This document shows, piece after piece, positions 38,454-53,273 of a DNA stretch of 64,000 nucleotides. This stretch comes from Comamonadaceae bacterium. GTDB taxonomy: Bacteria; Pseudomonadota; Gammaproteobacteria; Burkholderiales; Burkholderiaceae_C. A program made the position numbers and the translations under genes. The notes below the pieces were generated by a model that saw nothing but the letters and a program-made list of their open reading frames with translations, had not been told where the DNA came from and did no database searches. The stretch's first letter is position 1. Each line of letters begins with the position of its first letter. Where the stretch lies: positions 9,992 to 73,991 of the forward strand of contig JAYWHR010000065.1 of the NCBI GenBank assembly GCA_043777675.1. Direction: 5' to 3'.

Positions 38454-40195
38454 TGCACAACTCCAACGCTAATCTCATGCGAGAAGTATTTCAAAACGCT
38501 CAGCATCGGGTTCGGCGCAGCCTGCCCCAAGCCGCAAATGCTGGCATCCACCATCACAGTGCTTAAATCATTCAGCGTGGCTTGATCCCACACTTTCGCC
38601 TCCATCAGCTTCACAGATTTCTCCGTGCCCACGCGGCAAGGCGTGCATTGCCCGCAGCTCTCATGCGCAAAAAATTTCATCATATTGAGCGCGCCATTTC
38701 GCGCTGAATCCTGCTGACTCAACACGATCACCGCCGCGCTGCCAATGAAGCAACCATAGGGCTGCAGAGTATCAAAATCGAGTGGCACATTGGCCAGCGC
38801 TGCCGGCAAAATGCCGCCGCTCGCACCGCCCGGCAAGTAGGCATACAGCTCATGGCCATCCGCCATACCGCCACAGAATTCATCAATCAATTCGCGCACG
38901 CTGATGCCAGCAGGAGCCAACTTCACGCCCGGCTGCTTCACACGCCCGCTCACGCTAAAACTGCGCAGCCCCTTTCGGCCATTCCTGCCATGCGAAGCAA
39001 ACCATTCACCGCCTTTTTCCACAATCTCGCGCACCCAATACAGCGTTTCAAAGTTGTGCTGCAGCGTCGGCCGGCCAAACAAGCCCACTTGCGCAATATA
39101 CGGCGGCCGCATGCGCGGCTCACCGCGTTTGCCCTCAATGCTCTCAATCATCGCGCTCTCTTCGCCGCAGATATACGCACCCGCACCGCGCCGCAGTTCA
39201 ATTGTGGGCAGCTTGCATGGCGGATTCATTTGTAGCTTGGCGATTTCTGCGCTCAGCATCTCGCGCAGCTCATGGTATTCATCGCGCAGATAAATATAAA
39301 TCGCGTCAATGCCCACCACCTGCGCGGCAATCAACATGCCTTCTAAAAACCGATGCGGATCACGCTCCAGATACCAACGGTCTTTGAATGTGCCCGGTTC
39401 GCCCTCGTCAAGATTAATAGCCATGAGCTTAGGACTTGGTTGATCACGAACGATCCGCCACTTGCGCCCCGCCGGAAAACCCGCACCACCCAAACCGCGC
39501 AAGCCTGCATGCTCCAGCGCCGCAATCACACTCTCAGCATCGCGCGAACCATCCGCCACAGAACGCAGCAGCGCGTAGCCACCAGCAGCTTGGTAGTTAT
39601 TTAACGCTATTAAATCAATAGCGCTCTGCGCATGTTCTATGCCGGCTAGATGCTGTTTTTGCCCTAAAAACTGCTGAAAAATGTCTATGGAGGCATGCCC
39701 GAAATTCCGCTGCCCCACGGCCACCGCAGGCGCTTGCTCGCAGCGCCCAATGCAAGGCACCGGCTCAACTTTCACATCCGCTTGCAGCAGCGCGGGCAGC
39801 TCAGCCAGCAGCTCATTCGAGCCAGCCATCTCGCAGCTCAGTCCATTGCACACTCGAATCCGTAAACTTGGCGCGGCTTCGGCATCCCGCAAAATTTCAA
39901 AGTGATGATAAAAAGAAGCGACCTCAAACACTTCGGCCTGCGATAGTTTCATCAGATCCGCCAGTGCAGCGATATGCCGTTCAAACACCGCGCCATACGC
40001 GTCGTTCAAAGCATGCAAATATTCAATCAGCAAATCCCGCCTGAACAACTGCTCTGATGTGCCTGGCCACACTTTCTGCATCAGCGCACGCACCTGTTCG
40101 CGCGCCTGCGGCAATACCTGCCGCCCCTTCAATTGCGAGCGCACTGGATGCGTCTTGTGAACCGTGATTGGTTTGACTTCAACAATAGTTTTCAT
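38450..40195 (-). CDS. Formate dehydrogenase beta subunit (NuoE-like + NuoF-like fusion)
   Basis: EVASFY, CNGLSC, CIGRC; GLRGLGGAGF, DEGEPG.FKDR, GAGAYICGEE, HESCGQCTPCR, CGLG. Confidence 0.88.
   Translation of the reverse strand: MKTIVEVKPITVHKTHPVRSQLKGRQVLPQAREQVRALMQKVWPGTSEQLFRRDLLIEYLHALNDAYGAVFERHIAALADLMKLSQAEVFEVASFYHHFEILRDAEAAPSLRIRVCNGLSCEMAGSNELLAELPALLQADVKVEPVPCIGRCEQAPAVAVGQRNFGHASIDIFQQFLGQKQHLAGIEHAQSAIDLIALNNYQAAGGYALLRSVADGSRDAESVIAALEHAGLRGLGGAGFPAGRKWRIVRDQPSPKLMAINLDEGEPGTFKDRWYLERDPHRFLEGMLIAAQVVGIDAIYIYLRDEYHELREMLSAEIAKLQMNPPCKLPTIELRRGAGAYICGEESAMIESIEGKRGEPRMRPPYIAQVGLFGRPTLQHNFETLYWVREIVEKGGEWFASHGRNGRKGLRSFSVSGRVKQPGVKLAPAGISVRELIDEFCGGMADGHELYAYLPGGASGGILPAALANVPLDFDTLQPYGCFIGSAAVIVLSQQDSARNGALNMMKFFAHESCGQCTPCRVGTEKSVKLMEAKVWDQATLNDLSTVMVDASICGLGQAAPNPMLSVLKYFSHEISVGVVQ
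39606..39648 (-). repeat. 43-bp repeat, copy 5 (in frame in FDH beta)
   Basis: Reverse complement tagccggcatagaacatgcgcagagcgctattgatttaatagc; encodes LAGIEHAQSAIDLIA. Confidence 0.9.
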
Positions 40196-49296: not shown

Positions 49297-49383
49297 GGGG
49301 TGATTTCAGGATTTATAGTTCAACTGGAATTATTTTGCATCAGAACAGATAACCCGTCAAACCAAGGGCTTGAGGAGACAACC

Positions 49384-50979
49384 ATGCAACAGCACACACC
49401 AGCGCCCCCGGCGCAGTTCAATTTCGCCGCCGATTTGATCGCCGCCAACGCGGCCCGCCCCAATAAAGTCGCTCTCATCGACGATGCTCTCTCGCTCACC
49501 TATGGCCAGCTTGCAGAGCAAATCAAAAGTACCGCTGCCGGCCTGCTAAACGCTGGCTTGCGCCGTGAAGAGCGCGTCTTGCTCCTGATGCACGATTGCA
49601 GCGATTGGGTCGTCTCCTTCCTCGGCTGCTTGTATGCGGGCGTGGTTCCCGTGGCGGTTAACACGCTGCTCACACCGGAAGACTACGCTTATATGCTGCA
49701 ACACAGCCGCGCCCAAGCGGCCTTGGTCTCTGGTGCGCTCGTGCCTGCACTGCAAGGCGGCATGCAACTCGCTTCGCAAAATGGCGGGCATGAAATCAAG
49801 GCAATTTATGTTTCCCGTGCAACTGCCGATCTGCCAGTGAGCTACAGGGCTTGGAGCACGTTGCTTGAAGCTGCGCCCTTGAGCAAGCCTTGCCCCACAT
49901 ACGCCGATGAAGCCGCCTTCTGGCTCTATTCTTCAGGCTCCACAGGCCGCCCCAAAGGCACTGTTCACACCCATGCCAATGCGTTTTACACCGCAGAGTT
50001 GTATGGCAAAGGCGTTTTGCAAATCACCGAGAAGGATGTGTGCTTCTCCGCCGCCAAGCTCTTCTTTGCTTATGGCTTAGGTAACGGCCTGAGCTTCCCG
50101 CTCGCCGTGGGCGCCACCGTGATTTTGATGGCCGAGCGGCCCACGCCGGATGCCGTCTTTAAACGCTGGAAAGGGCAGCTAGCCGGCATGAAATCTATCA
50201 AGCCTACTATCTTTTTCGGAGCACCCACAGGTTTCGCTGGCATGCTTGCTGCGCCCAATCTCCCAGCTAAAAACGAAGTGGCGTTGCGCATGTGCTCCAG
50301 CGCCGGCGAAGCCCTGCCCGCAGACATTGGCCAACGGTTTGAAAAACACTTCGGTGTACAAATCATCGATGGCATCGGCTCCACCGAAATGCTACATATC
50401 TTTTTATCCAACCAACCCGGCAAAGTCCGTTACGGCACCACGGGATGGGCTGTGCCCGGATATCAGGTTGAACTCAGAGGAGAGGGCGGTGGCGCTGTGC
50501 CCGACGGCGAGCCCGGTGAGCTCTACATCCAAGGCCCCACGGCTGCTCTCATGTATTGGCAAAACAGAGAAAAATCTCGCAACACTTTTCAAGGCGAATG
50601 GACGAAAAGCGGCGACAAATACGTCAAAAACTCTGACGGCTCATACACCTACTCAGGCCGCAGCGACGACATGCTCAAGGTCAGCGGTATCTACGTCTCT
50701 CCCTTCGAGGTGGAAGCCACACTCGTGCAACACAGCGCCGTGTTAGAGGCCGCCGTCATCGGCAAAGAAGATCACGAGGGGCTTACAAAAACCAAAGCCT
50801 TCGTCGTCTTAAAAGACGGGCATTCGGCCACCGAAGAAGAACTCAAAGCCTTCGTCAAAGGCCTTCTCGCGCCCTACAAATATCCGCGCTACATTGAGTT
50901 TGTGCGCGAATTGCCCAAGACGGCGACGGGGAAGATTCAGCGGTTTAAATTGCGAGATTTGGAAGCTTCGCGTCATTGA
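49384..50979 (+). CDS. bclA: Benzoate-CoA ligase
   Basis: FNFA.DL, LYSSGSTGRPKG, KLFFAYGLGN, DGIGSTE.LHIF, KTATGKIQRF. Confidence 0.9.
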   Translation: MQQHTPAPPAQFNFAADLIAANAARPNKVALIDDALSLTYGQLAEQIKSTAAGLLNAGLRREERVLLLMHDCSDWVVSFLGCLYAGVVPVAVNTLLTPEDYAYMLQHSRAQAALVSGALVPALQGGMQLASQNGGHEIKAIYVSRATADLPVSYRAWSTLLEAAPLSKPCPTYADEAAFWLYSSGSTGRPKGTVHTHANAFYTAELYGKGVLQITEKDVCFSAAKLFFAYGLGNGLSFPLAVGATVILMAERPTPDAVFKRWKGQLAGMKSIKPTIFFGAPTGFAGMLAAPNLPAKNEVALRMCSSAGEALPADIGQRFEKHFGVQIIDGIGSTEMLHIFLSNQPGKVRYGTTGWAVPGYQVELRGEGGGAVPDGEPGELYIQGPTAALMYWQNREKSRNTFQGEWTKSGDKYVKNSDGSYTYSGRSDDMLKVSGIYVSPFEVEATLVQHSAVLEAAVIGKEDHEGLTKTKAFVVLKDGHSATEEELKAFVKGLLAPYKYPRYIEFVRELPKTATGKIQRFKLRDLEASRH

Positions 50980-51212
50980 GCGTACATTGGTAGTACGCTG
51001 TGGCCTGAGATGACTGAAATCGGGCGCCCTCATGGTGGAGTACCACAAATCGGTCGCCCAATTTCAGTCATCTCAGACCGTCTTGTACAACGCGACCGGC
51101 TACGAGCGAAGACCTTTCGAGTAGCCAACAGGCCGCGAGTGTGAGGCTTTGCGACTGACCGATTTGTGGTACTCCACCATGAGGGCAGGCGCAAAGCCTC
51201 ACACTCGCAGCC
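50979..51212. repeat. Multi-hairpin intergenic element with 30-bp perfect inverted repeat
   Basis: Stems 50979-85/50993-99, 51005-20/51061-76, 51098-103/51121-26, 51135-53/51190-208. Sequence 51026-51055 is the exact reverse complement of 51157-51186. Confidence 0.8.
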
Positions 51213-51251
51213 GCTCTATCCACGCAGCCATCAACAGCCAGCCAACAACCT

Positions 51252-52364
51252 ATGCAAAACCTAGACAGCCTCCAAGGCATCAAAGTCATCGATCTATCGC
51301 GAGTACTCGGCGGCCCCTACTGCACGCAAATCTTGGCAGACCACGGCGCAGATGTTTTGAAAATCGAGCCACCTCAAGGGGACGAGACACGCGGCTGGGG
51401 CCCGCCATTTAATGCACATGGCACAGCCAGCTATTTCCTAGGTCTGAACCGCAACAAACGCGGCACGACCATGGATTTGTACGATCCCGCGCAGCGCGAA
51501 GCTTTGATGAAGTTGCTCGAAGATGCCGATGTGCTCGTGGAGAATTTCAAAACGGGCAGCATGGAAAAATGGGGTATTGGGTTTGACACACTGCATGCCA
51601 AATTCCCTCGCCTCATCCATTGCCGAGTGAGTGGTTTCGGCGCAGATGGGCCGATGGGCGGCTTGCCCGGCTATGACGCTGCGATTCAAGCTTTAGCTGG
51701 CCTGATGAGCATCAATGGCGAAAAGGGCGGCGAGCCGCTCCGTATGGGCATCCCCATCGTCGATATTGCCACCGGTATGAGCGCCGCCATGGGCATCTTG
51801 CTCGCGCTGCATGAGCGCGACAAAGGCGGAGGAAGCGGATTGGGTCAGTTCGTCGAATCCAGTCTCTACGACAACGGCTTAGCGCTGCTGCACCCTCATA
51901 GCGCCAACCATTTGCTCGATGGCCGCGTGCCCGGCCGCAGCGGCAATGCGCATCCCAATATCGTGCCCTACGACACCTTTGCCACAGGCACTGAGCCGAT
52001 CTTCCTCGCCGTGGGCAACGACCGGCAATTTGCCACCCTCGTGCAGACCATCGGTGCGCCCGATCTCGCCACCGATCCGCGCTTCGTCAACAACGGTCAG
52101 CGCAACCTCAACCGCGTCGCCCTCAAAGCCGCTTTAGAGGAAAAACTTGCCCTCTTCGCTGGCAAACCGCTGGCAGATCAACTCGTGCGCGCAGGCGTGC
52201 CCTGTGCCCCCATCCAAGACGTGAAAGCCGCGCTGAGCGACGAGCACACCTTGCACCGCGAGATGATCGTCAATATCGGTGAATATCAAGGCGTCGCCTC
52301 TCCCATCAAGCTCAGCCGCACGCCTGCGACCTACCGCTTACCACCGCCAGAGCGAAACAAATAG
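51252..52364 (+). CDS. Family III (CaiB/BaiF) CoA-transferase
   Basis: DLSRVLGGP, GADVLKIEPP.GD, LNRNKR, ENFK.G, PGYD..IQA. Confidence 0.9.
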   Translation: MQNLDSLQGIKVIDLSRVLGGPYCTQILADHGADVLKIEPPQGDETRGWGPPFNAHGTASYFLGLNRNKRGTTMDLYDPAQREALMKLLEDADVLVENFKTGSMEKWGIGFDTLHAKFPRLIHCRVSGFGADGPMGGLPGYDAAIQALAGLMSINGEKGGEPLRMGIPIVDIATGMSAAMGILLALHERDKGGGSGLGQFVESSLYDNGLALLHPHSANHLLDGRVPGRSGNAHPNIVPYDTFATGTEPIFLAVGNDRQFATLVQTIGAPDLATDPRFVNNGQRNLNRVALKAALEEKLALFAGKPLADQLVRAGVPCAPIQDVKAALSDEHTLHREMIVNIGEYQGVASPIKLSRTPATYRLPPPERNK

Positions 52365-53230: not shown

Positions 53231-53273
53231 ACTACTAAATCAATAGCGCTCCACGCTGTATTTATTCCGGCTA
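53231..53273 (-). repeat. 43-bp repeat, copy 8 (intergenic, after bdhA)
   Basis: Reverse complement tagccggaataaatacagcgtggagcgctattgatttagtagt. Confidence 0.8.

Follow-up and report, generated by a model that had tools for sequence, protein, structure and literature searches.

A dispersed hairpin-repeat family of Comamonadaceae that resembles REP, BIME and REPIN elements and has a putatively single-stranded working form

The window analysed here is a 64,000-nt stretch of the genome of a Comamonadaceae bacterium. It contains a gap, between a benzoate-CoA ligase family gene (bclA) and a family III CoA-transferase gene, that is filled by two long hairpins with unrelated stems and complementary apices. 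We conclude that positions 51002-51226 are almost certainly one doublet copy of a dispersed family of non-coding hairpin repeats in the Comamonadaceae. The upstream gene matches NCBIfam TIGR02262 with 752.6 bits against a cut-off of 375. The best NCBIfam hits of the downstream gene are CoA-transferases, all of them with scores under the equivalog cut-offs. The features of the locus, in the order in which they lie on the plus strand, are:

49300-50979, plus strand: gene for a benzoate-CoA ligase family protein, upstream context outside the element
50981-50999, no strand given: small GCGTAC/GTACGC hairpin directly after the ligase stop codon, specific to this locus and not part of the family
51002-51079, foldable strand minus: unit 1, that is hairpin 1, with a V-type stem; core at 51026-51055
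51080-51100, no strand given: linker GTCTTGTACAACGCGACC..., kept in doublets of the window's genus according to doublet and orthologue alignments
51101-51129, no strand given: central small palindrome GGCTAC...GTAGCC, that is hairpin 2, the counterpart of the GTAG-rich central hairpin in Polaromonas doublets
51131-51212, foldable strand plus: unit 2, that is hairpin 3, with a W-type stem, a typical family member of its own genome; core at 51157-51186
51213-51226, no strand given: tail GCCGCTCTATCCA, conserved after W-type units in the alignments
51252-52364, plus strand: gene for a family III (CaiB/BaiF-type) CoA-transferase, downstream context

A sequence-only reading of this DNA had described two hairpins with loops complementary over 30 nt, and the match proved to be exact. 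The sequence GCCCTCATGGTGGAGTACCACAAATCGGTC occupies positions 51026-51055 on the plus strand and its exact reverse complement occupies 51157-51186, which makes a pair of perfect 30-bp inverted repeats 101 bp apart. An inverted match of 30 nt is expected by chance zero times (0 of 100 shuffles). The remaining parts of that description were likewise found in the sequence: the perfect 16-bp stem of hairpin 1 (CTGAGATGACTGAAAT / ATTTCAGTCATCTCAG at 51007-51022 and 51061-51076), the unrelated and also perfect 19-bp stem of hairpin 3 (GCGAGTGTGAGGCTTTGCG / CGCAAAGCCTCACACTCGC at 51135-51153 and 51191-51209), the GGCTAC/GTAGCC hairpin between them and the small hairpin before them. Alignment revealed no counterpart of this last hairpin in the congeners' orthologous gaps. 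The region folds with -135.7 kcal/mol (z = -9.6 against shuffles). The covariance model R1, built from 44 diverse units of the family, scored 82.2 bits for unit 1 on the minus strand (G000:C65:60992-71, where G000 is the window's own genome) and 88.7 bits for unit 2 on the plus strand.

A BLAST search against the window's own assembly (3.66 Mb, 54% G+C) found hairpin 3, together with hairpin 2 and ~15 nt beyond, on seven other contigs. The statement that the element has no other copy is thus correct within the window, where none was found at up to 3 mismatches, and wrong for the genome, which holds seven further units on other contigs. Pattern search, nhmmer and the covariance model all arrive at nine units for this genome, seven of which are single. 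The stem type of hairpin 1 is represented only once among the nine, and V-type stems related to it are present in other genomes. The window's version of the doublet, a W-type unit, hairpin 2 and a V-type unit, also occurs at other loci in congeners.

We scanned one genome per prokaryote species with a degenerate core pattern. Among the matches listed there were more than 116 loci, nearly all in records of Polaromonas, Variovorax, Rhodoferax or Comamonadaceae; two matches without the stem, in Chloroflexota and at one Burkholderiales locus, are chance matches. The family was detected by R1 in 12 of the 121 Comamonadaceae genera sampled. Copy number ranged from 0 to 21 across 15 genomes of the window's genus, other genomes contained up to 21 and at least 38 copies, and metagenome-assembled genomes of Polaromonas, Variovorax and Rhodoferax contain many. 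A search of the plasmid collection returned no family match.

Each unit is a hairpin of ~80 nt that forms a nearly continuous helix. The outer stem, 23-27 bp long, must pair but is otherwise free in its sequence; at least five sequence families of outer stems, unrelated to one another, were distinguished. The core comprises 30 nt, is asymmetric and nearly invariant, and reads on the selected strand GAYYGAT(T/G)T, a 4-5-bp apical stem around a GTAC-containing tetraloop, and (A/C)TGARRGC. It was identical in 73 of the 137 pattern-matched stretches listed, 135 of which are real units, in a scan that had itself fixed 17 of the 30 positions beforehand. Inward of the outer stem follow a closing G-C pair, an invariant A.G, two Watson-Crick pairs, a tandem G.A/A.G, a U.U, one further pair and a U.Y; the apex is a 4-5-bp stem capped by a TACT or TACC tetraloop. 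The 30-nt segment that had been taken for a loop is complementary to its partner as described, but it is not an open loop: in the window the helix runs on within it by two further Watson-Crick pairs and by non-canonical pairs to a 4-bp apical stem and a TACT tetraloop.

The stems are constrained in structure rather than in sequence. Across the 44 diverse units, pairing was kept in 95.2% of cells, and 29 of the 31 pairs had changed on both sides. The covariation score was 0.82, whereas shuffled partners gave 0.23 and slid controls 0.08-0.14. The apical stem covaries as well, with the combinations CTGG/CCAG, GTGG/CCAC, CGGG/CCCG and GCGG/CCGC. The search for homologues and covariation that the sequence-only reading had suggested thus uncovered a dispersed family with strongly covarying stems. 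Long variants keep the closing GATTT...ATGAG and have an apical domain of ~95 nt. At one locus of a congener (L154, G008:C26:12480-12783), the apical stem is split by an element of ~105 bp that ends in inverted repeats, CTAATACTGTTCG..., and has a direct duplication of 10 bp, GTCGAGTACG, a separate MITE (miniature transposable element with inverted repeats) inserted into the core.

The mismatches in these stems differ between the two strands. Any transition in a stem is a G.T when one strand folds and an A.C when the other does. Stem mismatches in the 44 diverse units were G.T 65 times and A.C 5 times, and 29 units from other genera showed 42 G.T against 5 A.C, and 31 R.R against 3 Y.Y. Because the mismatches favour G.T over A.C, the strand that carries GAYYGATTT... 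is the one selected to fold, and a fold selected on one strand only implies that the working form would be single-stranded. We consider it probable that the unit is recognized as a single strand and in a strand-specific manner.

The placement of the units relative to genes is also uneven. None of 25 doublets lies in a divergent gap, 10 lie in convergent gaps and 15 between co-directional genes. Single units between co-directional genes are oriented sense in 8 cases and antisense in 10, and since singles show no strand bias relative to the neighbouring genes, a role in read-through mRNA is disfavoured. Scanning the window element, we found no sigma-70-like promoter or intrinsic terminator in it or beside it. 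With respect to GC skew, the foldable strand is on the negative-GC-skew strand in 6 of the 7 single units of the window's own genome (contigs C61, C17, C70, C24, C23 and C51, as against C67) and in 5 of the 6 singles of the complete genome G152. The total of 11 of 13 is suggestive of a replication-related orientation bias, in a sample that is small, partly non-independent and too limited to claim one. G152 (G152:C1, L223-L227) is a 2.6-Mb genome of another genus, and in 4 of its 6 singles a conserved GTTTTT..CTG.GCTC flank comes straight after the upstream stop codon and adjoins the unit, which suggests a preferred post-stop position or target for the units.

The inverted arrangement seen in the window recurs throughout the family. 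In 31 fetched loci we found (-,+) doublets with their units 131-157 nt apart, matching the layout of hairpin 1 and hairpin 3. The Polaromonas doublet is well bounded, measures ~265 nt, and carries two different stems (X and Y) with a GTAG-rich central palindrome of 16-20 bp. A Polaromonas-like genome had 14 apparent singles, of which 13 proved to be doublets with the partner offset by 154 nt. With R1, (-,+) doublets 135-215 nt apart and with entirely different stems were detected in at least 7 genera. A small GTAG palindrome with two inverted units on its sides is the dominant form of the family, and the two 'loops' of the window are complementary because both inverted units carry one family core. 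The foldable strands of a doublet are opposite, and either strand reads as an anti-unit, the central palindrome and a unit. In 23 of 31 doublets the two cores were the same, whereas shuffling of partners gives an expectation of 15.3. The doublet's outer ends do not form a clear inverted repeat, and no parent insertion sequence was found.

Family units form mosaics with other repeats. A repeat of ~45-60 nt, CTACAAATTCAATAGCA.TC..CGCA....ACGCCGGCTA, has more than 100 copies in the window's own genome, where it is far commoner than the family; it often lies 60-70 nt past W-type units and forms mosaics with them (for example at G000:C61:139731-139797 and 140182-140248), and within the window it is present at 39617-39631 and 53242-53256.

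Comparison of orthologous gaps among congeners revealed both turnover and constraint. At the window locus, hairpins 1, 2 and 3 are present in the window's own genome and in G011, and in three congeners (G010, G017 and G007; L132, L137 and L139) another long hairpin replaces hairpin 1. Among the other congeners, one is without hairpin 1, a second has lost the greater part of hairpin 3 and a third contains an unrelated repeat. Another orthologous gap, between convergent genes, holds a doublet in one species, is almost empty at 17 nt in one, contains a short unrelated sequence in two and three other repeat types in the remaining five. The hairpin that replaces hairpin 1 belongs to a family with the ends GGCCTG.G ... 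C.CAGGCC (GCGGCTGTGGTTGGGGTATC...GATACCCCAAGCGCAGCC), also present in the window's own genome at G000:C16:52092-52250; it uses the same gaps as the core-bearing units, and its outer stem resembles V-type stems. Nested or exchangeable apical modules between these hairpins and the core-bearing units are likely. In one congener a single GGCC stands where others have GGCC...hairpin...GGCC, which is only suggestive.

Where a unit is retained, it is well conserved. The orthologues of hairpin 3 in five congeners are 99, 95, 85, 82 and 80% identical to that of the window, and third codon positions in both flanking genes are 52-66% identical. Hairpin 1 of G011 has the same core as its counterpart in the window, and the two stems differ by six fully compensated double changes, a pattern suggestive of replacement by other copies, or of conversion from them, and not of stepwise mutation. 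At one locus the core is reverse-complemented in situ: the unit at G000:C17:26872-26951 and its orthologue at G005:C133:5277-5356 have collinear stems and flanks, and cores of opposite orientation. The window element is therefore a doublet of a dispersed, structurally constrained and strand-selected family, with turnover among congeners and a core that can flip.

The family has its closest parallels among known extragenic palindromes. In E. coli and other enterobacteria, repetitive extragenic palindromic (REP) units are arranged as bacterial interspersed mosaic elements (BIMEs; PMC2817692). The Comamonadaceae units resemble them as extragenic palindromic units of alternating orientation that are joined by short motifs into mosaics and dispersed in many copies, that are placed downstream of genes or in convergent gaps while avoiding gaps with promoters, and that share the gaps they occupy with different repeat types. 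They differ in length (~80 nt against ~35 nt for REP), in taxon, in having stems of at least five unrelated sequence families, and in what is conserved, an asymmetric 30-nt apex as opposed to the stem and 5' GTAG of REP. Nor are they known to bind IHF, gyrase or Pol I. No match was obtained to a described REP family, with its GTAG head and ~20-35-nt stem-loop, and GTAG occurs in the Comamonadaceae family only in the central palindrome. The list of REP sequences in PMC2817692 contains nothing similar. The sequence-only reading had named a match to a known REP/BIME family as the outcome that would undo its proposal; this has come about in spirit, in that the element is a dispersed repeat of REP/BIME kind, but not as a sequence match.

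REPINs, which are known with RAYT from Pseudomonas and enterobacteria (PMC3116915, PMC3337134), are similar in that the inverted doublet prevails and is probably the replicating form, with singlets as remnants; shared as well are long vertical persistence, a single-copy RAYT-like gene and copy numbers that vary from one close relative to another. In contrast to REPINs, which have conserved arms and a free spacer, the present family has a conserved apex and free arms, its two units each fold alone, the RAYT gene is flanked by another palindrome, and the presence of RAYT does not track the family. The REPIN/RAYT literature that we found does not mention the Comamonadaceae.

Other systems share single traits. 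Integron attC sites and the attP site of CTX phage also keep structure with a free stem sequence, fold on one strand and display conserved unpaired or non-canonical positions on a hairpin; the present family has no integrase, cassette arrays, R/L boxes or dif-like sequence, and its copies are dispersed and not arrayed. IS200/IS605 elements and their miniature derivatives have imperfect hairpins of which a single strand is read by an HUH tyrosine enzyme, and non-autonomous forms exist. Their end hairpins, however, lie on the same strand, as opposed to the opposite foldable strands of the two family units, no TnpA or TnpB was found near family loci, and no conserved cleavage motif was identified. 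The non-coding 'flip-flop' sequences of plastids and the terminal repeats of parvoviruses likewise present a loop in a perfect stem in both orientations at one site; the present family is bacterial and chromosomal, and its flip is a single event (C17 of the window's own genome against G005:C133). The Beta-proteobacterial repeat element (BRE) of Bordetella and the Comamonadaceae, reported in Polaromonas, Rhodoferax, Delftia and Acidovorax (Hot et al. 2011, PMC3110155), has a similar repeat size of ~80-90 nt. It is a separate family with the sequence TTTTTTGGCCGCGGGCCGCCCAAGGCAAAAAAGCC..., arranged in tandem arrays and lacking the core, and its published copies share neither core nor stem with the units described here. 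Hammerhead, K-turn, C/D-box, dif and attC were rejected by eye, as the defining motifs are lacking.

In a search of Rfam 15, run at E<=10 for the window locus and at E<=0.01 for seven related ones, nothing came near a gathering score. The look-alikes below threshold were miRNA precursors, the Mycobacterium small RNA Ms_IGR-8 (23.8 bits against 44), ZMP-ZTP and a few others. The earlier judgement that the element is structured, non-coding, non-random and outside the named classes, and for which an Rfam scan had been advised, is upheld by this result. The family is apparently undescribed; a MITE reported for Polaromonas sp. JS666 (cited in PMC10969869) lies outside this comparison.

Two mechanisms that had been proposed for the window in isolation do not carry over to the family. 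A two-state RNA switch or loop-loop device specific to the bclA-CoA-transferase junction would draw on the exact complementarity of the cores (30 of 30 positions), on a core-core duplex fold that lies only 9 kcal/mol above the minimum (-113 as against -122), and on the excess of identical cores within doublets. The same 9 kcal/mol make this fold worse than two separate hairpins, however, each of which has a stem under selection of its own and 'loops' that are largely helical. The same doublet recurs at many unrelated loci and in many genera, and congeners keep hairpin 3 where hairpin 1 is absent or replaced. Since most units of the window's own genome, the seven singles, lack a partner loop, loop-loop pairing cannot be the general function of the family, and the locus-specific switch, very improbable in our estimate, is largely refuted as such. 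Inversion of the ~100-bp segment between the cores (51056-51156) by a site-specific recombinase is suggested by the spacing and perfection of the inverted repeats, and inversion does occur in the family, but inside one hairpin. Inversion between the two cores of a doublet would leave cores between non-complementary arms, an arrangement that none of the 135 real units shows; recombinase genes do not recur in the neighbourhood and the segment contains no promoter. We regard an invertible DNA switch as extremely improbable. The related suggestion of paired recombination or HUH-type sites with a shared core and distinct arms described the anatomy well; no recombinase or transposase recurs near the loci.

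A structured RNA has more in its favour. Under this explanation the hairpin would be transcribed and a protein would read its core, as a stabiliser in 3' untranslated or intercistronic regions, a processing site or a small RNA, and with a doublet the transcripts of two convergent genes would share one architecture. The strong covariation, the bias of G.U over A.C on one strand, which is typical of RNA, the conserved tandem G.A and U.U positions and the enrichment of doublets in convergent gaps, together with their absence from divergent ones, would all be expected, and hairpin 3 of the window is sense to the bclA-CoA-transferase pair and conserved above silent sites. On the other hand, co-directional singles are antisense at least as often as sense, the foldable strand of hairpin 1 is antisense at the window locus, the core flips relative to its flanks, and the element has neither a promoter or terminator of the types scanned for nor an Rfam match. 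We hold a structured RNA to be unlikely overall. According to the REPIN-RAYT explanation, the doublets are REPINs that are copied by the genome's single RAYT. That genome does contain a single RAYT-like gene (C16:1018-1719, adjoining gltB; 78.8 bits to NF047646, cut-off 80), and the dominance of the inverted doublet with singletons alongside, the vertical-looking persistence with variable copy number, the GTAG motifs in the central palindrome and strand-specific folding, as expected of a substrate of single-stranded DNA (ssDNA), all fit. The gene is flanked, however, not by family units but by inverted AAATTAAATGGTATCTGACCC palindromes (L009 = G000:C16, 981-1001 and 1775-1809), which have ~10 copies genome-wide and are probably the RAYT gene's own small REP family. 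A RAYT homologue is present in 114 of the 121 genera as against 12 with the repeat, the two units of a doublet are unpaired with each other outside the core, and they measure ~80 nt as against ~25 nt. We judge this explanation improbable, while RAYT may act as a helper of the family.

The explanation that we favour, and consider probable, is a REP/BIME/REPIN-like repeat that is read single-stranded by a trans-acting protein. The unit would work as a single strand, on one defined strand, and the protein would recognize the core displayed on any stable stem. As the working form, ssDNA would be somewhat likelier than RNA; we lean towards ssDNA and the element's own propagation because the orientation of units is unrelated to neighbouring genes, promoters are absent and the dyad resembles the logic of REPINs. 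Recognition would serve the spread and maintenance of a non-autonomous element, whose dyad-symmetric doublet would look alike from either strand. Copies would settle behind genes and then persist for a long time under constraint, and the core would flip by recombination or by template switching between the stem arms. The parts of this proposal differ in strength. Mobility through an ssDNA enzyme is a tentative suggestion, and we are doubtful whether the core, with its tandem G.A/U.U motif and GTAC tetraloop, is the site of a protein and thereby makes the units a novel kind of chromosomal signal read from a single strand, or of non-autonomous element, in the Comamonadaceae.

Several observations weigh against this explanation. 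No mobilising or binding protein was found, and no transposase recurs near the 116 loci listed; the sole large cluster among recurrent neighbour proteins consists of spurious open reading frames across the repeat, and the rest are ordinary LysR, Bug and ABC families. No family unit lies within ~1-1.5 kb of the RAYT gene in the window's own genome and three others, palindromes of the AAATTAAATGGTATCTGACCC type flank the RAYT gene in a high-copy Polaromonas genome too, and across the genera RAYT and the repeat show no correlation. No target-site duplication is readable at the orthologous gaps, which are too diverged. A host function would account for the long-lived and strongly constrained copies at orthologous sites no less well than selfish spread would, and tolerance of G.T is also a classic signature of RNA structure.

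To our knowledge, dispersed palindromic repeats are common in bacteria, and few families have a known mobilising enzyme or function. The main examples are REP and REPIN sequences with RAYT, Correia elements and ERIC. As a category, the repeat described here is ordinary, and we place it among repeats of the REP/BIME/REPIN type, with a putative mechanism; what sets it apart is an asymmetric apex conserved on free stems, selection of one particular strand and a doublet form shared across genera. The conserved apex, the free stems under a pairing rule, the selection of one strand, the dyad found across genera, the orthologues that outlast silent-site saturation and the core flip together point to a specific reader protein and a single-stranded working form. 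Cold freshwater metagenomes are rich in genomes of Polaromonas, Variovorax and Rhodoferax, and in these genera family units break assemblies and can pass for riboswitches, small RNAs or recombination sites. The family offers a testable case for how repeats are recognized and for why hosts keep them. If the proposed mechanism is true, the doublet and core flipping would free the signal from the direction in which replication or transcription proceeds, or let it be adjusted to that direction.

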